From contig AP039711.1 of NCBI GenBank assembly GCA_051599415.1, positions 186,001-229,341 of the forward strand: 43,341 nucleotides of DNA, given 5' to 3'. Each line of letters begins with the position of its first letter. The stretch's first letter is position 1. The notes under the pieces were generated by a model. It had not been told where the DNA came from and ran no database searches. It was given only the letters and a program-made list of their open reading frames with translations. This DNA is from Savitreella phatthalungensis. Lineage: Eukaryota. Of the stretch, positions 2,999 through 43,341 are shown one piece after another. Made by a program: the position numbers and the translations under genes.

Positions 2999-3292
2999 GT
3001 ACGCGTTACTGCTCTGTACCTTGCTCTACTCCCTGACACAATCAATCCCCTCCGTCTTACCCGTCACAACCTGCTTCGTCGATCCCCAGACACCTCTGCA
3101 AACACCATCACTGCCAGCACCATCACTACCACCACCCACCACCACCATCATCACCATTACGACCATTCCTCCGGTGCTACCACAGCCTCCAACCTCAAGA
3201 AATAAGTGATCATCTCATCCAGCAAGGTCTGTGCAGGTCCGACAACCGGCAGCCGAAAAAGCTTTTCGTTGTCGTCACGCTCTCTCATCGAT

Positions 3293-9200: not shown

Positions 9201-10144
9201 TCGATCTCATCAACAACACGCCTTTCCTCCGCAAGCACATCCTCTCGGTTGACCAATTCACCCGACAGGATTTGCACGTGCTATTCACCGTCGCTTCCGA
9301 AATGCGCACCAACGTGCAACGGGACGGCGTGCTTGACCTGCTGTCTGGCCGACTCATCACAACCATGTTCTACGAGCCTTCGACGCGCACGTCGTCGTCT
9401 TTCGATGCGGCCATGCAACGCCTCGGTGGCCGTACTGTCGCGATCGCTGCCGAGATGTCGAGCGTACGCAAGGGAGAGACCCTTGCCGACACGATCTATA
9501 CATTGTCATCCTACGGTGACGCAATCGTGCTTCGTCACCCATCTGATGACTCGGCCCAAATCGCCGCTCGCCACTCACCAGTTCCGGTCATCAATGCTGG
9601 CAACGGCAGCAAGGAGCACCCTACTCAGGCCTTCCTGGATCTCTTCACGATCCGCGAAGAGCTCGGTACGGTGAATGGTTTGAACATCACGTTCCTCGGT
9701 GACCTGCGATACGGTCGTACCGTTCATTCGCTCAGCAAGCTCCTTCGCTACTACTCTGTGCATGTCAACTTCGTGTCACCGGCGGCGCTGCGCGTGCCGG
9801 AAGACATCAAGGCGGATTTGCGCGCTCATGGCGTATCATTCTCTGAGCACGCAGACCTGTCGGAGGTGATTGCGGACACGGACGTGTTGTACTGCACGCG
9901 TGTGCAGGCTGAGCGATTCGCAGACGCGAGTGAGTACGAGTCACTCAAGGACAGCTACGTGGTCGACAAGACAGTCATGTCTCGCGCAAAGCGCCACATG
10001 ATCGTCATGCACCCGCTCCCTCGCAACAACGAGATTGCAGAAGAAGTCGACTATGACTCTCGAGCAGTCTACCTGAGCAGGCAGATGCGGATGGGCCTGT
10101 ATGTGCGGATGGCCCTGCTAGCATGCGTTCTCGGAGCCCGCTGA
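3293..10144 (+). CDS. URA2: Glutamine-dependent carbamoyl-phosphate synthase / inactive dihydroorotase-like domain / aspartate carbamoyltransferase (2283 aa)
   Basis: GATase motifs [24 protein letters not shown] motifs [25 protein letters not shown]; ATCase motifs [23 protein letters not shown]. The DHO-like segment lacks the metal-binding HxH ([10 protein letters not shown]), as usual in fungi. The track start at 3206 is GTG; first ATG is 3293. Confidence 0.97.
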
Positions 10145-12493: not shown

Positions 12494-14047
12494 ATGGTCA
12501 TCGATAAGGCCACAAAGTATGATCGACAGCTGCGACTGTGGGGTCCTGATGGTCAAGAAGCCCTTGAGAACGCAAGCATTGCTCTCTTTGGAGCCACCGC
12601 CACAGGCTGCGAGACACTTAAAAATCTCGTTCTTCCAGGAATCGGCCAGTTCACGATCATAGACGACAAGCAGGTCAAGTACGAGGACTGTGGCGTCAAT
12701 TTCTTTGTTCGTCTGACAGATGTGAGCAGACCGCGCGCTGAAGTCGCTGTCGAACTTCTCAATGAGCTCAATACGGATGTGATTGGCCACGTATGGCACG
12801 AATCTCCCGAAGAAGCGGTCTACAGCAGCATGAGTCGTATCACAGAAACATTCGATCTCGTCATCGTGGCGGAAATGCCCTTGCCGGCCTTACACCGCCT
12901 GGCAGATCGTCTTTACGCGGAGGATATCCCACTGATCGTTGCGCAGACAAACGGATTCATCGGCAGGATACAAATTTCCATTCCCGAGCACACAGTCATT
13001 GAGACACATCCAGATACTTCAAGCGATCTGCGGCTCGACAAACCATGGCCAGACCTGCTGGAGCTTGCCGCGAACCTCGACCTATCAAGTCTGGACGATG
13101 AGGCTCATACACATGTACCATTCGTACTCCTTCTGCTGCATTACAAGCGTCTCTGGTTGACTGAGCACGGCAATCTCCCGACGACGTACGAGCAAAAGAA
13201 TGCTTTCAAAGACCTGATTCGTGCAGAAATTCGCAACAATGATGAGGAGAATTTTGACGAGGCGATCGCAAACGTGTGGCGAGCATGCGGTAAAAGCACC
13301 ATCAGTTCAGACGTGCAGCGCATCTTGGACGATGACAAGTGTAGACACTTGACAGCCAAAAGTACGATGTTCTGGTTCCTGGCCAGAGGCGTAGCCGACT
13401 TTGTCAACCTTTCAGAAGAGGGTGATGGGCTCTTGCCACTGAGCGGGGCTCTGCCCGATATGAAGTCTACGACAGAAGCATACGTACAGCTGCAGCACAT
13501 CTACCGGGCCAAAGCCAAGGTTGACGCTGGAAAAGTCTTGATCCATGTACAGGACCACCTCGCTTCTGTCGGCCTGTCTCGGGATAGATACTCTCAAGAA
13601 GAAGTGGAGCATTTCTGCAAGCACTCAGCGAATTTGAAGCTCTTACGTTACAGCAGCCTGAAGGACCAGACTCATTTCGACAAGCTACCTCTTGAGGATG
13701 GTGCCAGTGACCCATCAGCATTCGTCCTGGCTTATCATGCCGCGGAGCTCCAAGCTTCGCCAGAAGATTATCCGGGTCAGCGCAACGAAGCCGACTTGGC
13801 ATCTTGCACGCAGGCTCTGTTGACAACTACAGGGACATTGCTTGGCAGGAATCCTCCGAGCGCAGTTCACAAAGCTTGCGCGGAGCTTGTGCGTAGTGGC
13901 GGGGGAGAACTGCATAACATTGCTTCACTCGTGGGTGGCGTTGCGTCGCAGGAAGCGATCAAGCTTCTCACCAAGCAATATGTCCCGCTCAACAACACAT
14001 GGATCTTCGATGGCGTGCATAGCACGAGTCAAGTCTTCCAGCTGTAA
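12494..14047 (+). CDS. ULA1: NEDD8-activating enzyme E1 regulatory subunit (APP-BP1/Ula1)
   Basis: KYDRQLRLWG, ETLKNLVLPGIG, EHTVIETHP, LPLSGALPDM, ELHNIASLVGGVASQEAIKLLTKQYVP. First ATG at 12494. Confidence 0.93.
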   Translation: MVIDKATKYDRQLRLWGPDGQEALENASIALFGATATGCETLKNLVLPGIGQFTIIDDKQVKYEDCGVNFFVRLTDVSRPRAEVAVELLNELNTDVIGHVWHESPEEAVYSSMSRITETFDLVIVAEMPLPALHRLADRLYAEDIPLIVAQTNGFIGRIQISIPEHTVIETHPDTSSDLRLDKPWPDLLELAANLDLSSLDDEAHTHVPFVLLLLHYKRLWLTEHGNLPTTYEQKNAFKDLIRAEIRNNDEENFDEAIANVWRACGKSTISSDVQRILDDDKCRHLTAKSTMFWFLARGVADFVNLSEEGDGLLPLSGALPDMKSTTEAYVQLQHIYRAKAKVDAGKVLIHVQDHLASVGLSRDRYSQEEVEHFCKHSANLKLLRYSSLKDQTHFDKLPLEDGASDPSAFVLAYHAAELQASPEDYPGQRNEADLASCTQALLTTTGTLLGRNPPSAVHKACAELVRSGGGELHNIASLVGGVASQEAIKLLTKQYVPLNNTWIFDGVHSTSQVFQL

Positions 14048-14071
14048 ACGTGTAATCTCATGACATTATGA

Positions 14072-14785
14072 CTAGTAACCTCCCTGTGCGCCCTGTTCTG
14101 CTCCCGTCACGATTGCCACGGACGCGGAGCAGCCTAATCGAGATGCACCTGCGGCTAGCATGCCACGAGCATCCTCGGTCGTTCGGATGCCCCCGGAGGC
14201 TTTGACCTGCAGGCCTTGCGATGCGACTTCTTCATGCATGATACGGACATGCTCGACTTTGGCACCACCGCCTCCAAATCCGGTGGAGGTCTTGACGAAC
14301 GCTGCTCCACCGGCGATCGACAACTTGCATGCCCGACGAATCTCATTCTCGCCTTGTAGGAGGGACGTCTCGATGATGACCTTAACGATCGCCGGCTTGC
14401 TGGCTTTGACGACGGCCTTGATATCATCGACAATCAGTTCATCTGCATCTCGCGTATTCTCCCGCAGCAAGCCTACCCCGATGACCATGTCGATCTCATG
14501 CGCACCGTCTGCCACGGCAGTCCGGGCTTCGAAGGCTTTGCTCTCCGAGCTTGCCGCACCGAGCGGAAAGCCGACGACGGCGATAGGTACAGGCCCACTG
14601 TGACTGCTCGCGTCTGCTCGCAAGGGCGAGCCCAGGACTTCTCGTGCAAGTTGGATATGCGAAGAGTTCACGCAGACTGTCGCGAACTTATGCGTCAAAG
14701 CCTCTTGACAGATTTGTCTGATCTGCGCACGCGTCGCATCCGCGGACAGGATTGTATGATCTATGTGCTGTGCAATACCCGCCAT
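14072..14785 (-). CDS. deoC: Deoxyribose-phosphate aldolase (DeoC/DERA)
   Basis: IDHTIL, VGFPLGA, EIDMV, KVIIET, FVKTSTGF (Schiff-base Lys), VKASGGIR. Likely start MAGIAQHIDHT at 14785. Confidence 0.93.
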   Translation of the reverse strand: MAGIAQHIDHTILSADATRAQIRQICQEALTHKFATVCVNSSHIQLAREVLGSPLRADASSHSGPVPIAVVGFPLGAASSESKAFEARTAVADGAHEIDMVIGVGLLRENTRDADELIVDDIKAVVKASKPAIVKVIIETSLLQGENEIRRACKLSIAGGAAFVKTSTGFGGGGAKVEHVRIMHEEVASQGLQVKASGGIRTTEDARGMLAAGASRLGCSASVAIVTGAEQGAQGGY

Positions 14786-14913
14786 GCTCGCGCTGCAACA
14801 TTTGATGGATCCTGAACCGTGTCTTTGAGACTTAGCTGGTTTCCTCATTCGGACATAGCCGAACATGTGAATTTTATACGCTACATGAGGAAAAATTGAA
14901 GCGGCAAAAGACG

Positions 14914-16624
14914 TTAGGAGTCGTGGTCGTCATTATCCGCATTATCGCGGTCGTTGCGCTTGGCCGTCTCATCAATCACCTTGCGGAAGTCTGTTCGGCT
15001 GATGACAAAGATCTCTGTGGTAGCGACGATGAGTAAGGCCAGGAAACATGCCAATCCAGATGCCATACAGACCCATATGTGCGGGGAAAGCGAGCGCAAT
15101 ACCCGCCGGCAGGGCCACGGCATAGTACGCAGGTAGGTTGACAGCTGCAGCAATTGCCTGCTTCCCGAGTCCGCGGAGAACACCCTGTGCGACTGCAGCG
15201 AGAGCATCGAAACAGCCGAAGAAAGCGAGGAAGGGAATCACTTCGGAAACGAGGACGATCACCTCTGGATCGCGCGAGAACATGTGGCCCCACTGCTTGC
15301 GGAACACAAATAGCAGAACAGCCGCAGCAATAGCGTTGACGACTCCAAACCCGATGGCTACGCGAGCGCAAATTCTTGCGGGCTGCTCAGTGCCGGCACC
15401 GACCAGATTGCCAATGCGCGTAGCCGTAGCAACAGAGATAGCGAACGGGATTTGGAAAAGGATCGAGGATGACGTGTTCAGGATGGACTGTGCCGCAAGT
15501 TGAGGCGTGCCGAGCCAGGACGAGAAGACGCTCAAGACCTCAAATGCCGCCCATTCGCTAAGAATCATCAAAACTCCAGGAATCGCAAGCTTGATCATCG
15601 GACCCCAATTCGAGAAGGCGCGCTTGCTGAATCCACCCCAGGCATCCTTGTCATCGAAGAAATAGATGTATAGTAGCAGAAGTCCCGCCTGAAGCCAGAA
15701 AGTGAGCACTACGGCGGTTGGGGCTCCAACAAAGCCGATTCCGATCCGTTCGTCCCATACAAGGACGTAATTCAGGACAATGTTGATAGGTGCCGAAATG
15801 AACAAGCAATACGTGCCCGCTCGAAAATCACCTTTGGCCTGGGTATACCGCTTCAGCGTTTCAAAGACCGCCATGGCGGGCACCCCGAGGAGAAATCGCT
15901 GAAGATACTGTCCGCTCAGTCGTGCAATCTCGGGGTCTTGGCGAAGCAATAGCATGAGCGCTTCGCCATTCAAGAAGACGAGTGCAACAGGAATGTGAAG
16001 CAGGACAAGAAGCAGGAGACATCGCTGAACGTGTACCCCGACCAGTTCCTTCCGCCCCGCTCCGTATGCTTGAGGACAAAGGGTGTCGAGCGAGGATATA
16101 CAACCTTGAAAGAGGGAGAAGGCCATGATTGCGGATACCATGGTTGACAGACTCGAGGCACCAAGCTCTTTCGTGCCGAGGCGCCCGAGTGAGAAGACTG
16201 TAGAGAATTGCTCGGACGCCTGAAGCAGGAACGTGATGATGAGCGGCAGACTAGTGCGACCGAGAACGCGCGACTCATGTCGCCAGGTAGACTGTACGCG
16301 GTTGCCCTCTACCGCCTCATCCCAGAGATCATCAGTGTCCGTCTTTGGCAGCAAGGGCGAGTTCTCGGACGGAATTGCCCTGGATGTATTAGACGCTCCC
16401 GCTGCCCGAGTGTCTTGAGCACTCGTCCTGAGCAGTTCGCGCTCTTCGTCGTGACATGCCTCTTCCTCCTCAGCGGTCAAGTGTCCCGCAGGTAACGGTG
16501 AGGATGCAAGCAGCGCCGGCCGGGCGAATCCCGCCGCGAAACTCTGCCGACGATAAGAATTAGCTAGCGAGTGTTTGCCATGGGCATGGCCATCGCGCGA
16601 GCTGCGCCGCGGCCTGATGTCCAT
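14914..16624 (-). CDS. MATE-family efflux transporter with an apparent 1-bp frameshift at ~15044
   Basis: MATE motifs LDTLCPQAYGA, KLAIPG..SEW.AFE, TRIGNLVGAG, GVLRGLGKQ. The final TM helix and tail (MFLALLIVATTE...TDFRKVIDETAKR) continue in the adjacent frame to a stop at 14914. Confidence 0.85.
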
Positions 16625-16754
16625 GACTAGGCCCTCCCTATATGCTGTCTGATTTACACCGAGCCGTTGCACGTTTCAAAACGACACAATTTTTATCTCT
16701 CTCGTGTTGCGGGATCTTTATGTCTATCATTTCCAAAATAAGCCAAACGGACCG

Positions 16755-18212
16755 CTAGCCGCTCCACTCTGGTGCCACTTCCTTCTTACCGAGTGCGTAC
16801 GGCACGATGCCAGATACGTGTGTCTCTGGACCGTACACGCGCATTGGCAGCTTGAGCCGCTCTCCACATGCTTTTATGGCACGAAGTCCTTCCTGATAAT
16901 TTGGTCCTGCACGCCGCACCCAGATCTGAACGTTGTGGGTGTGGAAGGCGCCAGCGAAATCTGTAAGAGCACGAATGATGCCCTTAAAAGTGGAAGCAAC
17001 GTTTGTGAAGTTCGCGATACCACCGCCAATGAAAAGTATTTTGCCCTGCGGGTTGGCTTCGCCGCGGGTCATGAGCTCGAACACTGTCTTAGCGTACTCG
17101 TATGTCTGCGCCTCCGAAGGCGCACCAGAATATTCTCCGTAGTTTGCTAGGTCGTCGGCAAAGCCATTTGCAGCAATCGCGTCTGCGTAGACCACGGAAG
17201 CACCTCCACCGGCCACAAGTGTCCAAATACGACCCTGCGGATTGAGCACAGTGAGCTTGAGCGAGGCACCAGTCTTCGCGTCCAGGTCTGCAATGTAAGC
17301 CTCCTCCTTTGAAAGCTCGCGGCCGAAGGGAGCCGGAAATTCGATGGGCGGACCTGCGTCGGCGCTGATCTTCGTGGACTGAACAGCCCTGAGGCCGACA
17401 TGAGCCGGTGCGCGAGCAACGGCCCATTTGCTGCCGGCCTCGAACTCTGCTGTCTGATCCAGCTTCGCTGCGAGGTCGAGGTAGTGCACGGAGGCTCCTG
17501 TCTCGTCCGGGATGACGACAAGCGGGTTGATCTCGAGCAAGGTGAATTGACAGTCAACGTAGACAGCGTATAGACGAGAGATGAAGTCGACGAGCACGTC
17601 GTGGACCTGTGCGGGAACCTTCTTGAGGAGGGTTGAAGCGATCACCTCGCGGGACGGGAACTCGGACAGATCAACGGGCACTAGCAGCTTCTCTGCCTTT
17701 GCATCCACATCGCCGATGTCGACACCGCCTTCGTGTGAGAACCAGATCCAGTCACCCTCGCGCACGCTCATGATGTTGATGTAGTACTCGGTCTCCTGAG
17801 GATGTGGCACGAACGGCTCGACGAGGAATGTCCGCAAATACCCACTAACGTGCTCGACGGGCTGCTTCTTGCCAGCTCGCTCCTCAATCCAAGTCCGGGC
17901 TTCCTGCCAGGTTGCGTTGAGCTTCAGCAAGCCTGCTTTACCACGACGCTTGATCAGCATGTCGGGCTTCGCAACAAGCTTTGTCGTCTGGAGCCAACTG
18001 CCGTGATCCTGCTCTGTCTGGTCAAGCACCTGCTTGACGTGTGCTGCATAGTCCTGCACCTCTTCCGGGGATTCAAATTGGATCGATGCAAGTTGGACAG
18101 CGCCAGTCTTGCTCTCTGTCTTGTAGGCAGATTGCGAGACAGATGGTGATCTGCTCAGCCAGTATGCCAAGATGGCTTTGCCATCATACTCCCGAATAGC
18201 TTTTGCAGACAT
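16755..18212 (-). CDS. acl2: ATP-citrate lyase small subunit
   Basis: MSAKAIREYDGK, AKPDMLIKRRGK, LDAKTGASLKLT, VAGGGASVVY, NYGEYSGAP, GGGIANFT. Confidence 0.95.
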   Translation of the reverse strand: MSAKAIREYDGKAILAYWLSRSPSVSQSAYKTESKTGAVQLASIQFESPEEVQDYAAHVKQVLDQTEQDHGSWLQTTKLVAKPDMLIKRRGKAGLLKLNATWQEARTWIEERAGKKQPVEHVSGYLRTFLVEPFVPHPQETEYYINIMSVREGDWIWFSHEGGVDIGDVDAKAEKLLVPVDLSEFPSREVIASTLLKKVPAQVHDVLVDFISRLYAVYVDCQFTLLEINPLVVIPDETGASVHYLDLAAKLDQTAEFEAGSKWAVARAPAHVGLRAVQSTKISADAGPPIEFPAPFGRELSKEEAYIADLDAKTGASLKLTVLNPQGRIWTLVAGGGASVVYADAIAANGFADDLANYGEYSGAPSEAQTYEYAKTVFELMTRGEANPQGKILFIGGGIANFTNVASTFKGIIRALTDFAGAFHTHNVQIWVRRAGPNYQEGLRAIKACGERLKLPMRVYGPETHVSGIVPYALGKKEVAPEWSG

Positions 18213-18489
18213 GGTCGTGCGAGACACTGTGGTGACTGGAGTACCAGGAGCTTTGTCTCTTGATGTATGTGTGCTAGTGGTGTGTTCAAGGTCTGTGTGT
18301 GTCCAAACAGGTCTGAGTCAAGGTATCCGTAGTCAGTCGTGCCACTCACGAGCACGAGGACTCACAGGTGTAGTTCACCACGGTCACCACCAGCAAACTC
18401 AGTTGCTCCGCGATCAATATCGAAAGGGCGCTGCTCAGTTACTGCAAGTTCACTACAGCCGTAGGCTAAGGTCAGATCAGCAATCAGAA

Positions 18490-31547: not shown

Positions 31548-31795
31548 TGTTGCGGAGGACGACCGCAGGGAGCCGAGAGCAGCAGACAAAGCGACACGGA
31601 CACAAATCAGACAATACAGGTGGACACAGACAGAGTCCATCGAGGAACACGGAAAGAGACAAACGAGTATGCACAAGTACAAACAGACACAAATGAGCTA
31701 CAAGAGGCGGTCTAGGCAATGACGCTGACCCTAACTGATACATACCACAACACTGCTGATGTGGCAGACTGTTTGAGGTACAAGGGGGCGCAGCA
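31548..31795 (+). mobile_element. Decayed 5' part (U3) of an LTR; left arm of the fold-back
   Basis: Begins TGTTGCGGAGGAC and aligns by eye with LTR 34681-34926. Confidence 0.85.
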
Positions 31796-32070
31796 TTGTC
31801 CTGTGCTAGGTCCTGGTGTTGATGATGCGTGCTGCGTCCCCTGAGACCCGACCAGCCTGCCACGTCAGCAGAGTCGCGGTATGTATCATTTATAGCATAG
31901 TCAGTGTCACTGCCTCGACCGCCTCTCGTAGTCCTTCTGATTCTGTTTGTACTCATTTGAATCTCTCCGTGTTTCTCGGTGGACTCCGTCTGTGTCCTCC
32001 TGTGTCGACTGGTTTGTGTCTGTGTCGCTTTGTCCGTCGATCCCGGGTCCGGCGGCCGTCCTCCGCGACA
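31796..32070 (-). mobile_element. Decayed partial LTR in inverted orientation; right arm of the fold-back
   Basis: Ends GTCCTCCGCGACA, the reverse complement of the LTR start; aligns with LTR 34681-~34980. Confidence 0.88.
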
Positions 32071-33387
32071 CTTAGGGGCTTCGTAAGTCCTAATCTCTAG
32101 TCCTTACCTCGATACTCGCTTTTGTCTCGTTTTTGACTATCGTCTCGTGTATGTATGTATATATTGTCATGTGACCTCGTATCAGCCAGTGAGAAACCTA
32201 CTTGTAGCAGCCAATGTTACTGTCATGGGAGTCCATGTAAAGTGCAAAGAATTTCTGTTCTGTACTGATCATCCACCAGTGATAGTCCTCGCAATATGTT
32301 GGCTTTCATGGCGTCTGCCTGCTCTCGAACATGTTCCGGCATTGTTCAACTGCTGAGCTACTCCTCACGTCACGCCACGTGCAAGTCGTCATTTGTTGAT
32401 CTTTCAAAACTTCGATTGTATACCTGGTTTCCCTGCGGAGCTGTAATTCGGGTGAGGTATGCCTCTGTCTCTGTCGTCCAGAATCATATAGTCCTCTTTT
32501 TTAGTTCTTAGTTCTAAATGCCCTCATTGCTGTCGTCCGGTGCATCAAATCAGCCTCTCAGATCAACGTATCGCTTGTATTTACAGCTTCACTTGAATTG
32601 GAGTACCTTTCGATTTCTTTTGACCCCTTTCTGCAATTTCGAATGTGATATAGCCGTCTGTTGCCATAAACAGAGCATTATACATGTATATTATGAAAAG
32701 AGCACCATCATTATGCATGGATTTTATGAAACAAGAGAGCATTATGCGTCATTTCATGACTCCGGCAAGCATTCGCAAAGAGCATCCTTGAGCGACTGAC
32801 GAATCTTTTACACTTCGAAAGTTCACAAAAAGAAGAGCTTTTGTGAGCAGACCTGCGACAGTGATCAATTCCAGTGACGCGCTCAAGGTTGTGCAAATAG
32901 CTGTGGCCGTTTTTCGAAGACAAGAGGGCCTCGAGCGATACATTCGTCTTAACCAGCGAAGCTTTGGCGTGTCCGGACTTTCTCTCGCGCCTCCATCATT
33001 GTATACGGTGACCCGAATGTGTTGTGTGGCTGTTTCAAGATATTGATGAAATCCATAGCACATTGTTCGTGCCAGACTGGGTACACCGCGCAAATTGCTT
33101 GTGATCGTGGCTTGCAGCTGTTCAACGCTAGCTAAGTATCACAATTTGGGACCTGAGATATACATACTGTCGGCAGTAGACTCGATCGATCATGTCATTG
33201 CAGGTCATCTGCAGTATCTTTGCCTGTAATCCGTAACGAGCTACAGATCAGTTTGTAAAACACCCATGCCGAAAGGTGGAGCTATTGAGCAATTTCCGCG
33301 TCTTCTGTTGTCTCTAGCATATAGCACAAGCGATGAAGGTGTCCCAGCCAGCTCCTGACAAAGTGTAGATATTGGTGTAACATCCGC

Positions 33388-33818
33388 TGTTGCAAAGGAC
33401 GATCGCACGACCCGAGAGCGACGGAGAAAGCGACACAGACGCAACCCAGTCAACACAGGTGGACACAGACGAAGTGCGACAAAGGGCACAACCAGACACA
33501 AACAAGTACACATAGACACAGAAGGACTACAAGAGAGGTTGGTCTAAACCCTGCTATGACTGCTACATACCACAACTCTGCTGATGTTGCTCTTTACTGC
33601 TGACATGGCAGGATGGCCTAGGTGGAAGGACACGCCACGCTGTATAGAGGCAGCATGTAATATATCACCAACGCCAGGACCAAGTACAGATCAATACAAT
33701 TCAACAGCTCCGTAGGGGGCTACCATCTTGTCAGATGTAAAAGTGAAGTGATTGCGGAAGTGACAGCATCGTGTACAGAGTGTATACAATCAAACCGGGC
33801 GACTTGGCGATCGCGACA
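33388..33818 (+). mobile_element. Full-length solo LTR with 5-bp TSD TCCGC
   Basis: TGTTGC...CGCGACA termini, colinear with the intact LTR; TCCGC at 33383-33387 and 33819-33823. Confidence 0.9.
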
Positions 33819-34023
33819 TCCGCAATTGCTTATGCTTCGAGGATGACCGTAACTTTGTGATGTAGCAATCTCCACAGCACAGATACTAAATTCTGCATCT
33901 TTCGCTTGTGATCTCTTCCACTCTATTGCGTCAAGCGTGCTGCGGTCTTTCGATGTCTGAGTGTGGTCTGCGTCATGCGATCTGCCATACAAGCAGGCTT
34001 GAGATGCGTAGTCAGCGCAGCAG

Positions 34024-34420
34024 CGCCACAGAGGACTGTCGCTGAACCCTAGAGCGGCTGACAAAGTGACACAGACACGGCATCGGAAACACAGCAGCAC
34101 TCATGTGGAGCACAGCAAGATACGAACGCTACAAAAAGTCACGGTACGATAGAAAAGATCGTGGTTCCTGACTTCACCCAGCTTGTACGACGTGTTATTG
34201 TTGCAACATGTTGCGACTCTGCTGACATGAGAGGACGCAGCATGTTGTATGTGAACGGCATGTAAGATGTCACCAACGCCTACCACACAGAGCAATATCT
34301 ATTCAACGGCTCTGAATAGAGCCACAACCCTGTCAGACATTGTATTAGAGGGTGGCGGAAGTGACTGCATTGTATGCAATTTGTATACAAGCAGCCAGGA
34401 AGACTAGACAAGGCGCGATA
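34024..34420 (+). mobile_element. Highly degenerate solo LTR
   Basis: Patchy colinear matches (gaggac.g.cgc, ctgctgac, tcaccaac, tattcaac.gctc, gcggaagtgac, gtatac, cgcgata). No clear TSD; boundaries approximate. Confidence 0.7.
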
Positions 34421-34680
34421 GCTGTATCCCGTTGCCTCTTCTTGTCTGTCGGTGTTCTCCGATGACTGTTTGTTGAGTGTCTCTCATGAAGTCCTCCAGA
34501 TTTTGTTCTTCTAAGGGATTGGGTGCTGATTTGCGTTGCTCCGCCCGGCGTACACGGGTTCTGCAGCTGTCTTCCGCGATACGCGGCATATTTCAAGACA
34601 TGGCAGAGGATGGCCCGCTATGAAATGTACATGTATCCGAAGGAAGAGGGTTCGCAACATCACAAGCAAAAGCCGCCCAT

Positions 34681-35104
34681 TGTCGCGGAGGACGGCCGCA
34701 GGACCCGAGAGCGACGGACGAAGCGACACGGACACGAGACAGACAACACAGGAGGACACAGACGGAGTCCACCGAAGAACACGGAGAGACACGAACGAGC
34801 ACGAACAGACACGGAGGGACTACGAGAGATGGCTTAGACGATGGCACCCACCATGCTATATCTGATACATACCACAACCCTGCTGACGTGGCAGGTCGGT
34901 AGGGGAAGTACAAGAAGACGCGACACGCCGTACGGAGACGGCGTGCCAGATATCACCAATACCAGGACCTAGCACAGAACGATACTATTCGACAGCTCCA
35001 TACGGGGCTACTATCTTGTCATACGTAGACCGAGTGATTGCGGAAGTGACGGCGTCGTGTACGAACCGTATACGATCGACCTGGGCCATCGACCGGCCGC
35101 GACA
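34681..35104 (+). repeat. 5' LTR
   Basis: Identical by eye to 40966-41389 except A34745 vs G41030; 8-bp terminal inverted repeat. Confidence 0.97.
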
Positions 35105-35106
35105 GT

Positions 35107-35117
35107 ATATCTGGCAC
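35107..35117 (+). other. Primer-binding site, self-priming type
   Basis: ATATCTGGCAC, 2 nt after the LTR, is the exact reverse complement of LTR-internal GTGCCAGATAT (34943-34953). Confidence 0.75.
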
Positions 35118-35241
35118 CACCTCTTCTCCAATCATTCCGGTACGGACGCGTTCGAGTCAGGACCGTTCGAGTGCAACTACGGAGATCCCGTCACGTACGG
35201 GTGAGAGCAGAGCACTGAGCGGTACGCGAGACAGAACAACC

Positions 35242-36081
35242 ATGTCAGGAGCTAGCAGGGGACTGGCCTACCCGGAGTTCTCTGGAAATCCGCAGCAGCT
35301 CAAGGGTTTCCTGGCGCGACTTAAGATCCGATTGAACATCGACCAGGTCACAGATGAGTTCGAGAAGGTGAGCACAGCTTGTGGTTGCCTACAAGGGAAG
35401 GTTTACGACTGGGGGAACTCGGTGGCGGAGGCTACTACGGAGGGCAGGTGGCCTCTGGAGCTGGGAATCTCAAGCTTTGACTCATTTTGCAAAGTCCTAC
35501 GAGCAGAATACCAAGAGAAGGACGCCGCATGGGTCGCAGCAGTGCGACTGATGCACCTGAAACAGACCGGAACACTGACGGAATACAACGACGCATTCCA
35601 AGTCAACCGAGACAAGGTCGCCTGGAACGATCGGGCGCTTGCAGACCACTATCGAAACGGTCTTGCCCCGTGGATAGCAGAGCGATTGTCTACAGAGCCA
35701 CGGGAAAAGCTAGAATCGTTGACATCACTCCGAGAGGTTGTCAGAAAAATACAGGAGCACGAGACGGTGAACGCAATTCAACGAGCCGGCAGAGGTTCCG
35801 GACCCCGTGTCAAACCGGGGGAGGACTTGCGGAAGAGACTGGACGAGCCAAGAAAGAAGACTACCGAAGACTCGAACACGAAGGCGTCCGATGACGACGT
35901 CGTGCATGTTCAGATCGGTGCGGAAGATGGCGCGTCAAAGAAGAGAAAATACGAAGGCGAGGACGATAGGTCGAAACGTTATCGGGACTATCCTCCACGC
36001 GACTATTCCAACATGCGTTGTTACGCATGCAATGAACGGGGACATATTTCCACGTATTGTCCGACACGCACGGGAAACTAG
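35242..36081 (+). CDS. gag: Gag with CCHC zinc knuckle
   Basis: PEFSGNPQQLKGFL, LKQTGTLTEYNDAF, YRNGL, CYACNERGHISTYC. Confidence 0.93.
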   Translation: MSGASRGLAYPEFSGNPQQLKGFLARLKIRLNIDQVTDEFEKVSTACGCLQGKVYDWGNSVAEATTEGRWPLELGISSFDSFCKVLRAEYQEKDAAWVAAVRLMHLKQTGTLTEYNDAFQVNRDKVAWNDRALADHYRNGLAPWIAERLSTEPREKLESLTSLREVVRKIQEHETVNAIQRAGRGSGPRVKPGEDLRKRLDEPRKKTTEDSNTKASDDDVVHVQIGAEDGASKKRKYEGEDDRSKRYRDYPPRDYSNMRCYACNERGHISTYCPTRTGN

Positions 36082-39000
36082 AGAGGGTGGACGGACGGAC
36101 CGAGAGATGGTCGGAAGCTACAGTACTACGATCATCCGCCCCCCTTATCACATTCCCGGTCGAGATACAACTTGGAGACAAGACGGCAAGAGTGGAAGCG
36201 TTGATTGACTCAGGAGCATCGTGCAGTGGACTCGATGCAAAGTGGGTAAAGGAGATGGGCCTTCCGACGGAGAGGTGCGAGAAACCGATTCGAGTGACCG
36301 GAGCGGATGGACAACTCTTGAATGGAAGCGAGATTACATATCAGACACCACCAGCAAGGGTACGAATAGGCGACGAGATAGTCGAAGAGACGTTTCTCAT
36401 CACCGAGCTTGTGACGAAGTGTTTGCTTGGCTATACCTGGTTGGCAAAGGTCAATCCGATCATCAACTGGGCAGAACATACCATGCGCATCCGAGGCAAC
36501 ACGATTGTAGCCACACAGGTACACGAACCAGCGGACGGAGAACAAACGATAGCGGCACTGGAGTGGATTCCAACACAGGACAAGGATGACGAGACGTTCG
36601 AAAACGACCTAGCAGTCTATGACTCCTTGTTCGACCCAGCAGCACAGGACGCGCTACCCGAACGCACCGAGTTCGACCATCGTATTCAATTAAGGGTCGG
36701 GCCGGACAAGTACCCGGCACCGGCAAAGATCATACCGCTGAGTAGAGCGGAGGAGAGAGAGCTAGAGGAGTGGACGGCACTGAACCTGAAGCGTGGGTTC
36801 ATTGCACGCTCGGAAAGCTCGTTCGCGGCACCAGTATTCTTTGTGTCGAAGAAGGATGGCTCGAAACGTTTGGTTACAGATTACAGGGAACTCAACAAGG
36901 TTACGGAGAGAGACAGTTTCCCACTGCCACTGATTCCGAGCATCCTGAACAGGGTCGGAAAAGGCAAGGTCTTCTCTCAGCTCGACCTAAGAGGGGCATA
37001 TAACCTCGTACGCATCGCGGAGGGAGATGAACCGAAGACAGCGTTCCGAACACATCAGGGTTTATTCGAATACCGAGTGATGCCGTTCGGACTCATGAAC
37101 GCACCAGCAACGTTCCAGCGAATGATGAATGTCATTCTCGAACAAGAGATAGGGAAGTTCTGCGAAGTATATCTGGATGACATGATTATCTACTCGGAAA
37201 ATGAGGGCGACCACGCCGTTCACCTCAAGCAGGTCATGTCAAAGCTCGAACAGAACAAACTACTCGTGAAGAAGGAGAAGTGCCATTTCTACAAACCGGA
37301 AGTCGAGTTTCTGGGATACCGAGTGATGTACGGCTATATCGGCATGGCACCGTCGAAGATAGAGGCGGTAACGAGCTGGAAGGCACCGAACAACAAGAGA
37401 GCGATTCAACGATTTTTAGGATTCGCCAATTTCTATCGACGGTTTATCAGGAACTACACGATGATTGTGAAGCCGTTACAGGAACTTACGAAGAACATAC
37501 CTTTCAAATGGGGGAACGCGCAAGATGAGGCATTTCGGAAGCTGAAGACAGCATTTGTGCACGGCCCGATTTTGGCGCAATTCGACGTCGAGAAGGAGGT
37601 GTGGCTAGAGACGGACGCGTCGGACTTCGCGATCGCGGCGGTCTTTTCACAACAGCACGATGGACGATTACACCCGGTCTCATTCTTCTCCCGATCACTT
37701 TCAGACGCGGAAAGGAACTATGATGTACACGATAAGGAGCTCCTAGCGGTCGTGGCGGCATTTGGATACTGGAGGGTGTGGCTAACATGTGCGAAACAGA
37801 TCACGGTGGCTACGGACCACAGGAACCTGCTATACTTTTTCAACAAGGAAGTGTGGAAACAGCGCCATTGGAGATGGCGAGAGGTACTGGAGAGCTATCC
37901 GTTCAAGTTCCTATATCGTTCAGGGTCGCAACAGGTTGTTCCGGACGCCCTGTCGAGGAAGGAAGAACTGAAGAAACACAGATCGGATCCGGACGATGTC
38001 CCGGACAAGCCATTGTTCGAGACGAACCGATGGGAGGAGGTTAAGGACGGGAACGAGAGAAGCTTACGAGTGGCCATGATTCGAGCGAGCGAGCCAGAGG
38101 AGGAGGACGAACTGACACGAGACGAGTATTTTCAGGAGACGCCTGAAGAACTTCTCCGAATCGCGACGTCCTTCAATTCGGACTTTATCAGAGATCAACA
38201 ACAGATCCCCGGCACTACGATTGTGGAGGGGCTAGTGAAGAGGGGAGGACGCATAGTGGTTCCGGACCAGTTACGAATACGAGAGAGACTCATTGCGATG
38301 AGACACGATTTGCCGCTAGCAGCACACCGAGGCATTACGAAGACAGTGGAGCTACTACGGCGAGACTTCGAGTGGCCAGGATTGAGCGAAATGGTGAGCG
38401 ATTACGTACGCGGATGCGAGATTTGCAAGAGATCGGCCCCGAACAATCACCAGCCTTACGGACTACTCAACCCGTTGAAAATTCCGCGAGAATCTTGGCA
38501 GTGCATCGGAATGGACTTCATTGGACCATTACCGGTCTCCGAGGGCTACGATATGATACTGGTCGTCGTGGACAGGTTCAGCAAGATGGTGCACCTAGTG
38601 AAGGCGAAGGCGACCTGGACGACCGAAGATTTTGCTAGAGCCTTCATCGATGAGATCATACGTCTACATGGAATCCCCGAGGAGATCGTCAGCGATCGAG
38701 GACCGACCTTCCGATCCAGACTATGGGAGCAGATTTCGCGAAGACTACGAATCCGACTCAAACATTCAACAGCGTACCACCCGCAAACGAACGGGCAGAC
38801 GGAACGTACCAACGCGGTGGTCAAACAGGCGTTACGAGCATTCCTAGACTACAATCAGCAGACGTGGGCGCAATGGCTATCGGTGACCGAGTTCACGATC
38901 AACAATACAAAGAGCGAGGCGACGCAACAGACACCGTTCCGGGTTGTATACGGAAAAGACCCGAGGATGGATCTCGCCGAACTGGGAATAGACGAGGACG

Positions 39001-39554
39001 ATCCAAGATTCGAACCGCATGTGCATCATATCATGGAGATACAAGAACAGGTCAGATCGGAGCTAACGAAAGCACAGAAGCAACAGACGGAGGTTGCGAA
39101 CAGACGTCGCTTACAGACTCCGAAAATATTGGTGGGGGACAGAGTATGGGTGAACGCATCCAACTACCGATCGAGACGACCGAGCAAGTCCTTGGACTAC
39201 ACCAGATTGGGGCCCTATGAGGTCCTGGAGGTTCGCGAAAGAGACACCTTCGTCTTGGCGATCCCGAAGAACATGCGGATACACAACGTGTTCCATGCAT
39301 CAGCATTGGAGAAGCATCACGAGACAAACTACAACCGACCGAAGACAAGAAGAGTGAGAGAAGAAGGCATTACGAACGGCGAATACCCGCGAAGAATTAC
39401 ACAAATATTTGATTCCAGACCTAGCGGACGTTATGGACGACAGTACTTCGTCGAGTGGGATAGCGGTACCCCAGGAGACAGAACCTGGGAGAGAGAAGCG
39501 GACGTGAGAAGAGAGAACCCGAGATTACTAAGAGACTATCTGAATGGAGTCTAG
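36057..39554 (+). CDS. pol: Pol polyprotein: protease, RT, RNase H, integrase, chromodomain (made as a Gag-Pol fusion)
   Basis: ALIDSGAS; LDLRGAYN, MPFGLMNAP, YLDD; ETDASD, TDHRNL; HHCC plus MDF/SDRG/QTER; GPY; C-terminal QYFVEW...TWE chromodomain. Confidence 0.96.
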   Translation: MSDTHGKLERVDGRTERWSEATVLRSSAPLITFPVEIQLGDKTARVEALIDSGASCSGLDAKWVKEMGLPTERCEKPIRVTGADGQLLNGSEITYQTPPARVRIGDEIVEETFLITELVTKCLLGYTWLAKVNPIINWAEHTMRIRGNTIVATQVHEPADGEQTIAALEWIPTQDKDDETFENDLAVYDSLFDPAAQDALPERTEFDHRIQLRVGPDKYPAPAKIIPLSRAEERELEEWTALNLKRGFIARSESSFAAPVFFVSKKDGSKRLVTDYRELNKVTERDSFPLPLIPSILNRVGKGKVFSQLDLRGAYNLVRIAEGDEPKTAFRTHQGLFEYRVMPFGLMNAPATFQRMMNVILEQEIGKFCEVYLDDMIIYSENEGDHAVHLKQVMSKLEQNKLLVKKEKCHFYKPEVEFLGYRVMYGYIGMAPSKIEAVTSWKAPNNKRAIQRFLGFANFYRRFIRNYTMIVKPLQELTKNIPFKWGNAQDEAFRKLKTAFVHGPILAQFDVEKEVWLETDASDFAIAAVFSQQHDGRLHPVSFFSRSLSDAERNYDVHDKELLAVVAAFGYWRVWLTCAKQITVATDHRNLLYFFNKEVWKQRHWRWREVLESYPFKFLYRSGSQQVVPDALSRKEELKKHRSDPDDVPDKPLFETNRWEEVKDGNERSLRVAMIRASEPEEEDELTRDEYFQETPEELLRIATSFNSDFIRDQQQIPGTTIVEGLVKRGGRIVVPDQLRIRERLIAMRHDLPLAAHRGITKTVELLRRDFEWPGLSEMVSDYVRGCEICKRSAPNNHQPYGLLNPLKIPRESWQCIGMDFIGPLPVSEGYDMILVVVDRFSKMVHLVKAKATWTTEDFARAFIDEIIRLHGIPEEIVSDRGPTFRSRLWEQISRRLRIRLKHSTAYHPQTNGQTERTNAVVKQALRAFLDYNQQTWAQWLSVTEFTINNTKSEATQQTPFRVVYGKDPRMDLAELGIDEDDPRFEPHVHHIMEIQEQVRSELTKAQKQQTEVANRRRLQTPKILVGDRVWVNASNYRSRRPSKSLDYTRLGPYEVLEVRERDTFVLAIPKNMRIHNVFHASALEKHHETNYNRPKTRRVREEGITNGEYPRRITQIFDSRPSGRYGRQYFVEWDSGTPGDRTWEREADVRRENPRLLRDYLNGV
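36072..36141 (+). other. -1 programmed ribosomal frameshift signal
   Basis: G GGA AAC heptamer in gag frame directly before the TAG; pol is in the -1 frame; stem GGGTGGA (36085-36091) / TCCGCCC (36135-36141) after a 6-nt spacer. Confidence 0.8.
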
Positions 39555-39559
39555 AAATA

Positions 39560-40825
39560 CTAATGACGAGTACGGCGTAAAAAGTTGTTCACTGCTTTTT
39601 TGATGAGCCCGCGCCGACTACGCGGAAGGGACGAAGGATAGTCCAGACCACGTATGAGACAGTGGAGGGCTTCGCGTTGCCACGCACTTGAACGATTGAT
39701 AAAGTCAGAAGCCGCAGGAGAGACGTCCGGCCAGACAGGGCTTGTAGAAGGACGCCCTGCAGAAGGAGAAGTTGATTCGCCCAGCGCGAACGGAGACAGA
39801 GAGTTGTCCTCATTGAGATGAGTCACGTCTGCATTCCCAGATGGAAGCGTCAGAGAATGAGTACGAAGAGTATCGGAGTTCTCGAACGACGAGGAACCGG
39901 CAGGCGTGGGAGTGACCGCGCGATCAGAAGAGGGGGGAGCAGGCAGAGAGAGAGTGACGTCCTGACCAGAAGCCCCAGAGAGAAAAGAATCAGTAACCGT
40001 TTGAGAAGGACGAGGTGAGTGAACCGCAGAAGAGTAAGCCGGAAGAGTACCGGAAGGAAGAGAAGGGTTTACGACCTCGGTATTCGCCATGACAGAGAGG
40101 AGCGCGTCCCCTGAGAGCGGAGCAGGAAGATCACCGAGAGAGATTTGAGGCACATTAGGCCCAGCGAGACGGCGCCGAGCCTTCAAGGTATCTTGGAGCT
40201 CCTTGGTGGCGACTGCATTACTGCAGGAGCGATGCGCGAGATCGCAAGAGACGCAACAATTAGTTTTCCGAAGGTACGGCCGATAAAACGAGACGGGATA
40301 ACCCCAGATCTTCGCGCGGATGCAGGGCTGCATACAGACCACGAAGGGGCGTTCAGCGGTGTAGCCGGATGGAGGAGGACCGAATTGGAGTCGAGCGTTT
40401 ACCAGACGCTGCTGCCACTGCTGCAGCTCGCGCGGAGTGAGATCTAGACAGAGCTGGACCTGACCGGAGGGACACGGGGTGTCACGGAGAACCGTGATTT
40501 TCCCCGCATGAGGAGCTTCATTGCGGATGGCCGCGATTTCGTTCGCCGATAGCGACTCAATGGTGGCCTGCCCACGAGCGACACGGGTGACGGCATCAGC
40601 AGCAAGACGAGCGCGACGCTGTTGAGGAGTCTCGTTTACGGAACTCGCACGGCGAGTACGCGGAAGAGTAGCGGGCGCACGACGGCGTGGAGTCTGAGTA
40701 CGCACCGGTCCACCAGCGGAGCGCGACACAGGAGGTGTTGAATCGGCAGGAGCGGAGGAAGACGAGAGGACACTCAGGTTGGCATCGTCTTCAGAATCGT
40801 CAGAGTCGGGGAGTACGCGCGGCAT
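39560..40825 (-). CDS. Antisense accessory ORF of the retrotransposon (421 aa); unknown Cys-rich, possibly Zn-binding protein
   Basis: ATG-initiated ORF filling nearly all of the pol-3'LTR interval; its stop lies 5 bp from the pol stop; CMQPC...CCVSCDLAHRSC cluster. Confidence 0.7.
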   Translation of the reverse strand: MPRVLPDSDDSEDDANLSVLSSSSAPADSTPPVSRSAGGPVRTQTPRRRAPATLPRTRRASSVNETPQQRRARLAADAVTRVARGQATIESLSANEIAAIRNEAPHAGKITVLRDTPCPSGQVQLCLDLTPRELQQWQQRLVNARLQFGPPPSGYTAERPFVVCMQPCIRAKIWGYPVSFYRPYLRKTNCCVSCDLAHRSCSNAVATKELQDTLKARRRLAGPNVPQISLGDLPAPLSGDALLSVMANTEVVNPSLPSGTLPAYSSAVHSPRPSQTVTDSFLSGASGQDVTLSLPAPPSSDRAVTPTPAGSSSFENSDTLRTHSLTLPSGNADVTHLNEDNSLSPFALGESTSPSAGRPSTSPVWPDVSPAASDFINRSSAWQREALHCLIRGLDYPSSLPRSRRGLIKKAVNNFLRRTRH

Positions 40826-40851
40826 GGAGGACGCACTGCAATCGACGGCCT

Positions 40852-40862
40852 CTTATATATTG
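40852..40862 (-). promoter_or_regulatory. Putative TATA element for the antisense ORF
   Basis: Minus strand reads CCAATATATAAG about 27 nt upstream of ATG 40825, in otherwise GC-rich sequence. Confidence 0.45.
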
Positions 40863-40954
40863 GCTCTGAAACACACAGACGACGAAGCGATACGGACACG
40901 AGCACACAGGCTAGCACGCTGTTCTGCGCGTGGCCTGCCGGGGCGTCAGGCCTT

Positions 40955-40965
40955 GAGGTGGGGAG
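40955..40965 (+). other. Polypurine tract
   Basis: GAGGTGGGGAG directly abutting the 3' LTR. Confidence 0.85.
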
Positions 40966-41389
40966 TGTCGCGGAGGACGGCCGCAGGACCCGAGAGCGAC
41001 GGACGAAGCGACACGGACACGAGACAGACGACACAGGAGGACACAGACGGAGTCCACCGAAGAACACGGAGAGACACGAACGAGCACGAACAGACACGGA
41101 GGGACTACGAGAGATGGCTTAGACGATGGCACCCACCATGCTATATCTGATACATACCACAACCCTGCTGACGTGGCAGGTCGGTAGGGGAAGTACAAGA
41201 AGACGCGACACGCCGTACGGAGACGGCGTGCCAGATATCACCAATACCAGGACCTAGCACAGAACGATACTATTCGACAGCTCCATACGGGGCTACTATC
41301 TTGTCATACGTAGACCGAGTGATTGCGGAAGTGACGGCGTCGTGTACGAACCGTATACGATCGACCTGGGCCATCGACCGGCCGCGACA
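40966..41389 (+). repeat. 3' LTR
   Basis: 424-bp direct repeat of 34681-35104, followed by TSD CCCAT. Confidence 0.97.
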
Positions 41390-42102
41390 CCCATGCACTT
41401 CAAAGCAATGTGGTGCACATGCCAAGGTGATATATTGTTGTGAGACGAGACAACATGCTTGACGGCAGCAGCAGTCACAAGCAACCTTCGAGAGGAGTAT
41501 CAGAGCAGCAGCAGGGCCTGCAGAAGCAAGACTCGCATCAGCGAGGTGGCCATCTGCAGACATCAGCGTGGGCATCCGCAAGGATTAGCAAGCACCGGCG
41601 GGAAAGCAGCCATAGAATTCAGAGCAGGCGCAGAAGCAGAAGCCTCTCGAGAATTGACATCAAGAGAGGAAATTGGTCACCTCGAGGTTCCTCCACCTGT
41701 GGATGCAATCTTGGACCGGAAAACTGGCTCCGATGGGCGAGATATTCAGGCTTGCCGACCAAGACGCCCGACGACCTCGACAGTTAAGCCATGAACATAT
41801 TTTCGAATCACTTATGCACGCAGTCGGACGCAATATGCCTTGACGGGCCAAGTTTCATGGGTTTTAGTTGACTTCCATATGCAACAATCCTGAGATATTT
41901 GATCACAGGCAATTGGGAGCTCGTATCTATAAATAGTGAGGAGGCTATGCAGCACATGAGCTTTGCCTCGAGCACGCCTACACGCCTTTGACAAGAGCAG
42001 CAACCCAAAAGTGCTGTTCGGTTGTCGCCGAAGACGACGATCGTCGCTTGCGCTCCGTCGACCCATTTTGCTCCTGAGCTGACTACGTTGCTCTATCAAG
42101 GC

Positions 42103-43270
42103 ATGCCGTTGCACAGAGATGACGCAAAACGTCCGGCAACCCCATTCAGACGATCCAGTCGCATTCGAGCTCAACTTCCAGCGGGGTCTGATCATATGGG
42201 TCAGGAGTCTGCCGACTCTGCGCCGCTCAGCACTCCCACGCTGCCTGAGAACCGCACGACGACGAATGAAGACGCGCAACCGAGCGATTGCGACGATCAC
42301 AAGAGAACACACTACAAAGCGCGCGTTAATGTCGCCAGCCGGCCAGTGGATGTCGAAAAGCTTGATCGCTTTGCCGGCTGGTATGCGCAGCACAGAGATT
42401 CGCCGCTTTTAAGAATCGACCTCACTTCCAAAACGTGCGCCCGTCTGCTGAGCAACGAACGTGTCCGTTACGTGACGGGTTGGCCGACAGCCTACGACCA
42501 GTTTGCGTCGCTCACATCGACCATCGACGCGGACAAGCTAGACACTCTAGAGGCACGGCTGTCATGGTCACTCGATCAAGGTGAGCACGAAAATCCTTAC
42601 CACAACTTTTGGCAGGCATACCTTCAGCTTTTACTGAACAGCGATGCTTTCCGCGAAATTAGGGGCGCCTGTCACTTATTCGTCGGATGGGATGTGGAAA
42701 TCAAAACTCTCATGGATTCAGGGACTTTTGCCAGCGTCAAGCCGGACCTCACTGTCACAGCATTTTCGGCTGAGAAGACTTGGGTCAACCGCGTCTTGTT
42801 CTTGGCGGAAGTGAAATGCAGGTTAAGTTTTGATCATCAACACTTAGGTCAAGCTTTGGCACAACTGATAGCACTGCGGGAGCGAGACCGACGTAAGGGA
42901 CTCGAAATACCTGTATACCACAATCTGGCAATCTTCCAGCGCAGCGTGCGAATCATCTGCTGGCGTCCACGTCCAACCAGCGACCCCGTGAGCCGCGGAT
43001 CCCGGCGTCCACAAGGAGTCGTCACAATCTCGCCTCCTATATCGCTTGTGACCAGGGATGGGCATGACGAGCTTTTGCGCTGTCTCGCCGCTATCGTCGC
43101 TGTCAAACTCGAGCGAATCAGCACCCTCGAGACTGCCATGCCAGTGATTCAGGAATGGGTATGGGTTAGGGTTAGGGTTAGGGTTAGGGTTAGGGTTAGG
43201 GTTAGGGTTAGGGTTAGGGTTAGGGTTAGGGTTAGGGTTAGGGTTAGGGTTAGGGTTAGGGTTAGGGTTA
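42103..43270 (+). CDS. PD-(D/E)XK nuclease-like protein with no stop codon before the telomere (~353 aa then poly-VR)
   Basis: KPDLTV...FLAEVK...GQALAQL motif spacing; ATG at 42103; TATAAATA at 41928-41935; the frame continues as GTT AGG repeats. The track stop at 43296 lies in adapter sequence. Confidence 0.6.
43163..43270 (+). repeat. Telomeric array (GGGTTA)18, G-rich strand running toward the end
   Basis: 108 bp of perfect TTAGGG-type repeat, preceded by variant ATGGGT units. Confidence 0.97.
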
Positions 43271-43341
43271 GCTGTTCTCGCAAAGGCAGAAAGTAGTCTT
43301 AACCTTAGCAATACGTAACTGAACGAAGTAAGATAACAAAA
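43271..43341 (+). other. Untrimmed Oxford Nanopore native barcode and ligation adapter (artefact)
   Basis: GCTG + TTCTCGCAAAGGCAGAAAGTAGTC (barcode 06 as I recall it) + TTAACCTT + AGCAATACGTAACTGAACGAAGT matches the known end-of-read native-barcoding layout. Confidence 0.93.

Follow-up and report, generated by a model that had tools for sequence, protein, structure and literature searches.

A probable antisense accessory gene with a new cysteine-containing protein domain in an intact fungal Ty3/gypsy retrotransposon

Antisense accessory genes of retrotransposons with long terminal repeats (LTRs) are widespread, and none of them has an established function. Among retroviruses, ASP of HIV-1 is a protein gene located on the minus strand. 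Likewise, HBZ of HTLV-1 is described as a minus-strand gene driven from the 3' end region whose product is nuclear and regulatory (PMC11963269). In plants, the class aORF-3R, i.e., an antisense additional open reading frame (ORF) between pol and the 3' LTR, is defined by position and does not denote a homology family; according to PMC7264820 and PMC11963269, it includes gene23 of maize Grande, rice RIRE2, Silene Retand (TRP28, PF04195), and Phaseolus PvRetro13. In the same sources, these genes have their own promoter where studied (Grande), and their function is unclear, although roles in the nucleus or in DNA binding were proposed. For gene23 and the TRP28 proteins, the proposed role is to act on nucleic acid or chromatin in favor of the element. 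In the fungi Botrytis cinerea and Sclerotinia sclerotiorum, Boty-like elements with gag, ZnF, protease, reverse transcriptase, integrase, and CHROMO domains were reported to carry an antisense gene, brtn (Zhao 2011, Virology 417:248, as cited in PMC7264820, PMC8365987, and PMC4227169), which is reportedly missing from the current annotation of strain B05.10 (PMC8365987). Most examples belong to large, many-copy plant families, which are awkward to handle experimentally. Here, we describe a 43,341-nt stretch of contig AP039711.1 (positions 186,001 to 229,341; "the window", to which all coordinates below refer), near the right end of which a complete Ty3/gypsy LTR retrotransposon of 6709 bp (34681-41389) harbors a minus-strand ORF, termed aORF in the following. 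Altogether, our analysis indicated that aORF is probably a real antisense accessory gene that codes for a protein with a new domain.

With its position on the opposite strand, inside the LTRs and the target duplication and flanked by the pol stop (39554) and the polypurine tract (40955-40965), aORF falls into the aORF-3R positional class (Table 1). The spacer between pol and the 3' LTR is unusually long with 1411 nt (39555-40965), and its longest stop-free frames comprise 89, 65, and 110 codons on the plus strand and 77, 64, and 430 codons on the minus strand. The ATG of aORF sits 9 codons into this 430-codon stretch, and its stop (TAG on the minus strand, 39560-39562) is separated by 5 nt from the pol stop (TAG, 39552-39554). 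Upstream, a CCAAT box and a TATA-like element form a candidate antisense promoter inside the element, the TATA beginning 34 nt ahead of the ATG, and 140 nt separate the 3' LTR from the ATG. An original prediction made from the DNA letters alone had pointed out a 421-codon ATG-initiated minus-strand ORF filling the 1.4-kb gap between pol and the polypurine tract, a distance of 5 bp between both stops, a TATA-like element in front of the ORF, and no comparable ORF on the plus strand, all of which was recovered here. Its proposed span of 39560..40865 was correct at the first position, while the ORF itself ends at 40825 (39560-40825) and position 40865 also takes in the upstream TATA.

Two other identities of the spacer were considered and rejected. 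An env-like gene would lie on the other strand, and there is no sense ORF of more than 110 codons in the spacer. For the nested insertion of another transposon, neither a transposon domain nor a second match in the window was found, and the sequencing depth was that of a single copy.

Based on the published accounts of brtn, fungi were already known to have antisense genes in this position, so that the original claim that canonical fungal Ty3/Gypsy elements encode only Gag and Pol, with antisense ORFs mainly described in plants, does not hold. Both brtn and aORF are antisense genes located between pol and the 3' LTR of a fungal element, which has a chromodomain in the case of brtn and a weak candidate chromodomain in that of aORF. 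However, the only homolog of aORF stems from the Taphrinales, which belong to a different subphylum than Botrytis (Pezizomycotina). No brtn-like protein was among the two HMMER matches of aORF described below, and brtn may be missing from the protein library. Compared to the plant genes, which reside in non-chromovirus lineages with many copies and with spacers of 2.9-6.6 kb (Retand) as far as described in the sources named above, aORF is found in a 1.4-kb spacer of a putatively chromodomain-type fungal element with a single-copy interior and revealed no match to PF04195 or any other Pfam family. Likewise, HBZ and ASP have their promoter inside the 3' LTR, and the one proposed for aORF lies in the internal region, upstream of the LTR; no sequence relation to these two was found. 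Apart from the protein itself, what is new is the fungal lineage, with its only homolog in the Taphrinales, and an element that is single, intact, and polymorphic, which would extend the fungal record of antisense additional ORFs beyond Botrytis and Sclerotinia.

A HMMER search (E<=0.001) against 1,835,955,588 representative proteins resulted in only two matches, namely aORF itself and BFZ54612.1 (E 1.2e-12; P0002 in the following), a 289-aa protein from the Taphrinales yeast Savitreella phatthalungensis that is annotated as "hypothetical protein PYCC9005_001649". Both proteins have one domain in common (Table 1), and BLASTP revealed 44/119 identical and 65/119 positive positions. Its conserved pattern reads RP-VV..PC.R..W.Y..S..RPYL..N.C..CDLA.RSC; around the Cys motif, C, W, Y, P, R, and D residues are invariant and the substitutions between aORF and P0002 are conservative. 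In the reverse direction, tblastn with P0002 against the whole window hit only 40492-40169 on the minus strand (E 1.35e-20), the next best match having an E-value of 5.3. P0002 does not possess the S/P-rich half of aORF. Since the one significant homolog keeps the Cys/Trp/Tyr/Pro pattern, it is very probable that aORF is coding.

Further searches did not add any members. A word-indexed protein search with aORF retrieved only the query itself among 8000 scored candidates, and a profile built from both family members found no proteins beyond the same two. Two alignments, one of them confined to the domain, gave the same two peptide patterns and 455 pattern matches each in JGI metagenome contigs, and 81 pattern matches were obtained in IMG/VR viral contigs, none of them being confirmed. 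Thus, only two members of the family are known, with a single protein from each of the two sources, and this sparse distribution would seem to suit a gene of a mobile element better than a conserved host gene. As judged from sequence, a two-member protein family with an undescribed Cys domain is what is new here.

The length of the frame also argues for a coding sequence. While the original prediction had allowed that a T-poor plus strand might yield such antisense ORFs by chance, only 1 of 5000 dinucleotide shuffles of the spacer minus strand (39555-40965) attained 430 codons, the longest frame having a mean of 162 codons (standard deviation 43), so that the ORF exceeds chance expectation. 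The other two minus frames of the spacer contain 9 and 17 stops, and the longest open frame on the antisense strand of gag-pol, which is similar in base composition, comprises 159 codons. In addition, when 10 host ORFs of the window were used to train a codon log-likelihood, the aORF frame scored best among the six, for the whole ORF as well as for each third of it.

Regarding its deduced product, aORF encodes a basic protein (isoelectric point (pI) 9.6). Its N-terminus is rich in Arg (pI 11.2), the linker at residues 221-365 is acidic and S/P-rich, with S/P/T/A/G making up 57%, and the C-terminus is helical and likewise basic (pI 11.5), in line with the three-part description given originally. 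The Cys motif named there was also present in the translation and reads C164-MQP-C168-IRAK-x17-C190-C191-VS-C194-DLAHRS-C201, i.e., a spacing of C164-x3-C168-x21-C190C191-x2-C194-x6-C201. P0002 has five Cys in all, with the spacing C197-x2-C200-x18-C219-x2-C222-x6-C229. Beyond the invariant residues, the fifth Cys is shifted between both proteins: it lies four positions before C168 in aORF (C164) and three positions after the C168 equivalent in P0002, corresponding to A171. Such a shift would resemble the ligand shift of zinc sites.

The canonical spacing of Zn2Cys6 clusters is C-x2-C-x6-C-x5-12-C-x2-C-x6-8-C. The proposed link of the motif to a half-motif of this cluster failed, because the spacing is off in both proteins and the profile did not match: PF00172 (Zn_clus) was not hit at E<=10 by P0002 or by aORF residues 150-219 and 101-242. 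A Zn2Cys6 cluster was therefore rejected, the invariant Cys also numbering only four. At E<=1, aORF matched no Pfam family at all, and P0002 revealed at E<=10 a single, meaningless match to HTH_37 (E 0.16). A search of PDB sequences with the domain profile gave nothing meaningful (best E 0.28). AlphaFold2 models, one of the checks originally proposed, could be produced from two-row alignments, but with a mean predicted local distance difference test score (pLDDT) of 43.0 for the full protein and 47.6 for residues 100-225 they were too poor for a fold search; the C-terminus reached a pLDDT of 61-74.

A language-model feature search, performed separately with aORF and P0002, placed the same three Ascomycota clusters nearest to both proteins. 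Scores of the two queries were 0.89 and 0.89 for a DUF3716 (PF12511) cluster and 0.91 and 0.88 for a DUF8257 (PF26785)/DUF8414 cluster, where 28% of the cluster members carry DUF3716 and 29% DUF8257, and where, by the calibration of the search, 4-10 of 100 shuffled proteins score about 0.9 as well. Since hmmscan against Pfam at E<=10 revealed no match to DUF3716 or DUF8257, a kinship to these domains is a lead and does not amount to membership. In Zymoseptoria tritici, a class II transposon was reported to carry accessory genes for the DUF3716 proteins REP9-1 and REP9-2 (PMC8232023). Thus, the likeness concerns Cys-containing hypothetical proteins of Ascomycota and, as with aORF, accessory genes of transposons, whereas aORF rides on an LTR retrotransposon, the REP9 proteins ride on a class II transposon, and no profile match connects them. 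That aORF and P0002 might be the first members of a zinc-binding family borne by Taphrinales retrotransposons and distantly akin to the DUF3716/DUF8257 Cys domains is a rather improbable extension of these findings. If true, it would point to a recurrent accessory module acquired by unrelated fungal mobile elements, which might, for example, steer transcription or blunt silencing by RNA interference (RNAi) or heterochromatin; aORF would then be expressed convergently with pol, with protein and antisense RNA acting together.

As to the carrier, both LTRs agree at 423 of 424 positions (sole mismatch: 34745 versus 41030). We also compared the locus with contigs from four sequencing runs, all of which provide contigs only and no strand information; none of the runs listed is recorded as RNA. 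In X1, possibly a run of the source strain, a single 5543-nt unitig spans 35450-40992 with a depth of 93.3 compared to 76-86 in the flanks, so that the internal part of the element is single-copy. Bins of the LTR reached 1933-3374 in this run, so that the LTR family is abundant elsewhere. The window contains no other copy of the element interior or of the aORF stretch. In X3, a phyllosphere metagenome, a 168-nt contig fuses 34671 to 41386, omitting 6714 nt (window 34672-41385), i.e., exactly the 6709 nt of the element and the 5 nt of one target duplication. This contig represents an empty site and, thus, the insertion is polymorphic among close relatives and recent. Because of the near-identical LTRs, the intact target duplication, open gag and pol frames with full domains, and the empty site, the element was regarded as young and complete; on these sequence features, the carrier is an intact, young, and recently mobile element.

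Pieces of the element were also found in runs from two other studies. X3 additionally yielded a 397-nt contig for 40476-40872, which comprises the N-terminal third of aORF and the TATA region; it differs at 5 positions and is free of indels. The same run gave a 172-nt piece of pol with 5 differences. From X4, a run of another organism, a 197-nt contig of depth 2.9 corresponded to 40372-40568, a part of the conserved domain, and differed at 1 position without any indel. These pieces suggest only that the aORF region exists without indels in other samples.

X2, a second run of the same sample as X1, gave a different picture. Here, a gag-pol unitig (35758-39581) showed a depth of 23.6, while the aORF pieces (39904-40930) had 4.6-5.6, as in the flanks (4.6); the drop in depth falls 27 nt past the pol stop. 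LTR bins reached 12,675-18,264 and were about 700-fold more abundant relative to the flanks than in X1. Furthermore, a variant of 35002-35479 with 22 differences and a depth of 12.9 occurs in X2 but not in X1. The run, the type of which is given only tentatively as DNA, is unlike plain genomic DNA of the same strain and may represent RNA or a biased library.

Based on the open frame, the homolog, the codon usage, the young carrier, the sparse distribution, and the published precedent, we consider it about an even chance (probability c. 0.5) that aORF is a real accessory gene of the antisense-ORF type in an intact and recently mobile Ty3/gypsy element. In such a case, the putative promoter (CCAAT/TATA at 40852-40863), situated just inside the 3' LTR, would drive an aORF mRNA convergent with pol, the 3' end of which would overlap the genomic RNA, so that an effect at the RNA level may add to that of the protein. 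The predicted product would be a basic protein with largely disordered arms, the Cys motif of which may bind zinc as a two-knuckle site, and which, by analogy, might serve the element as a nuclear factor that targets nucleic acid or chromatin and regulates transcription, integration, or silencing. The original prediction had inferred a nuclear regulator, putatively an LTR transactivator or a silencing suppressor.

Several points weigh against aORF as an accessory gene. Its function finds no support from Pfam, PDB sequences, or a confident structure, and with the TATA so close to the ATG, the leader would be very short. Moreover, the minus strand is poor in A (16%), which favors long open frames, and segments of aORF taken singly were stop-free in 1.7-6.8% of the shuffles. 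The codon-usage signal is also weak: its margin is 0.038, compared to values of 0.096 in gag and pol and of 0.06-0.42 in the host ORFs. Finally, with a single-copy internal part and no second full-length copy, aORF is at best a presumptive constant feature of the element family, and P0002 may simply belong to the normal gene set of its host, in which case capture would be favored.

Capture is at the center of the rival explanation that survives best, though we regard it as unlikely: aORF would be a passenger, i.e., a host gene or part of one taken up in antisense by this copy, as in retroviral transduction, which is still intact because the event was recent and which plays no role in the life cycle. 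Not only the single-copy interior in X1 would fit, as captured antisense ORFs are described as typically present in one or few copies (PMC7264820), but also the annotation of the only homolog, which is merely called a hypothetical protein and is encoded on a contig of 714,618 nt, its exact sequence being found on 1 contig. The third-position A content of aORF (0.10) likewise equals that of host genes (0.11). However, neither a host paralog nor a donor turned up, since HMMER and the profile search gave P0002 only, and an ORF that fills the spacer exactly, stops that close to the pol stop, and has its own CCAAT/TATA appears tidy for a random capture. Third-position T, on the other hand, amounts to 0.38 in aORF versus 0.21-0.23 in two host ORFs of the window, meaning that the plus strand is A-rich like the rest of the element, which weakly suggests some residence time.

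Much less credence is given to a chance ORF or relic, in which only the domain of about 140 residues was ever coding, the extensions being open owing to A-poverty, and no protein is made today. Apart from base composition, this reading can draw on the shuffled segments, as the N-terminal 110 codons, the domain, and the C-terminal 201 codons were singly stop-free in 342, 272, and 83 of 5000 shuffles, respectively, on the low confidence of both AlphaFold models, and on the homolog that is devoid of the S/P-rich half (289 versus 421 aa). Opposed to it are the single shuffle in 5000 attaining the full open frame, a homology of E 1.2e-12 among 1.84 billion proteins, and an ATG only 9 codons from the start of the open stretch; with LTRs this similar, the element is young, and thus a frame intact at insertion would still be intact now. 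Equally improbable is a functional antisense RNA that pairs with the genomic RNA for RNAi or copy-number control, with the ORF being incidental. In its favor, the convergent layout with stops 5 nt apart makes a transcript overlap likely and the possibility is discussed in PMC7264820, but conservation at the protein level with conservative substitutions would go unexplained.

The locus offers a 6.7-kb element that is single, intact, and recently mobile, the genome amounting to about 13 Mb (summed X1 contigs), and there is an empty site in a related strain. Its aORF encodes a compact conserved Cys domain, and the only homolog-bearing relative is a yeast. Provided that the host is transformable, this would make a tractable system for asking what antisense accessory genes do.

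Table 1. Features of the Ty3/gypsy element and of aORF, with coordinates in the window.
Feature	Position	Strand	Basis
5' target-site duplication CCCAT	34676..34680	+	identical pentamer at 41390-41394
5' LTR, 424 bp, terminal inverted repeats TGTCGCGG...CCGCGACA	34681..35104	+	423/424 positions same as 3' LTR
gag, 279 aa, capsid-like region and CCHC knuckle	35242..36081	+	Pfam Retrotrans_gag 1.5e-08
pol frame: protease, reverse transcriptase, RNase H, integrase, SH3_Tf2-1, weak chromodomain	36036..39554	+	open frame and Pfam
aORF, 421 aa, ATG start, convergent with pol	39560..40825	-	ORF call; annotated as protein in NCBI source record (contig of 229,341 nt)
Conserved aORF domain, residues 78-219 (about 140 residues), in common with P0002	40169..40594	-	phmmer, P0002 residues 110-247
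Cys motif, aORF residues 164-201	40223..40336	-	alignments with P0002; invariant C168, C191, C194, C201
Candidate internal antisense promoter: CCAAT and TATATAAG, minus-strand read CCAATATATAAG	40852..40863 (40863->40852)	-	sequence inspection
Polypurine tract GAGGTGGGGAG	40955..40965	+	abuts 3' LTR
3' LTR, 424 bp, ends TGTCGCGG...CCGCGACA	40966..41389	+	LTR-LTR comparison
3' target-site duplication CCCAT	41390..41394	+	matches 34676-34680

The coding part of the element is organized as listed in Table 1. Besides Retrotrans_gag, gag gave matches below the Pfam cut-offs to Ty3_capsid (2.6e-06; 27.4 bits, cut-off 29.1) and zf-CCHC (0.0029; 18.1, cut-off 20.8). The pol frame is open from 36036 and lies in the -1 frame relative to gag, overlapping its end by 46 nt (36036-36081), and a LIDSGAS protease motif is located in this frame 5' of the first pol ATG. 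Conserved domains were detected for RVT_1 (5.9e-39), RT_RNaseH (7e-31), Integrase_H2C2 (2e-15), rve (1.7e-11), and SH3_Tf2-1 (1.6e-11). A C-terminal Chromo match (PF00385, pol residues 1049-1096; E 0.0011) remained with 19.3 bits under the cut-off of 25.1, and PF00385 is present in most of the 120 pol homologs listed of 6507. With best identities of 32-49% among these 120 (E<=1e-50), pol (36255-39554) lacks a close counterpart among the matches listed. Neither a self-match nor a Savitreella entry was among the 120 listed of 6507 homologs; since pol lacks a self-match, the source annotation seems to omit pol and yet to call aORF a protein. Annotations in which an accessory ORF is called a host "hypothetical protein" and pol remains uncalled may hide further cases. 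A 10-nt tandem repeat, ACACGAACAG, occurs in 3.5 copies within each LTR (34779-34813 and 41064-41098). An Rfam scan of 34000-42000 resulted in no matches, and no tRNA genes were found in the whole window.

To the left of the element, three fragments revealed 71-82% identity to its LTR, located at 31548-31767 (+), 31847-32072 (-), and 33388-33800 (+). In appearance, they are solo or broken LTRs from related families and together would make up a small transposon nest between housekeeping genes and a telomere-like repeat. The latter consists of 18.2 perfect copies of the telomere-type repeat GGGTTA at 43163-43271, with non-repeat sequence filling the remainder of the window, and lies within the 3' end of a 397-codon ORF (42103-43296) that gave no Pfam match. 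It may be an interstitial or healed telomere beside a transposon-rich stretch. The region 465-31039 is occupied by ordinary housekeeping genes, among them a CAD/URA2-type carbamoyl-phosphate synthase-aspartate carbamoyltransferase (3293-10144) and genes for a ThiF-family enzyme, a MatE transporter, both ATP-citrate lyase subunits, an HLH factor, an F-box protein, a kinase, and Fip1.

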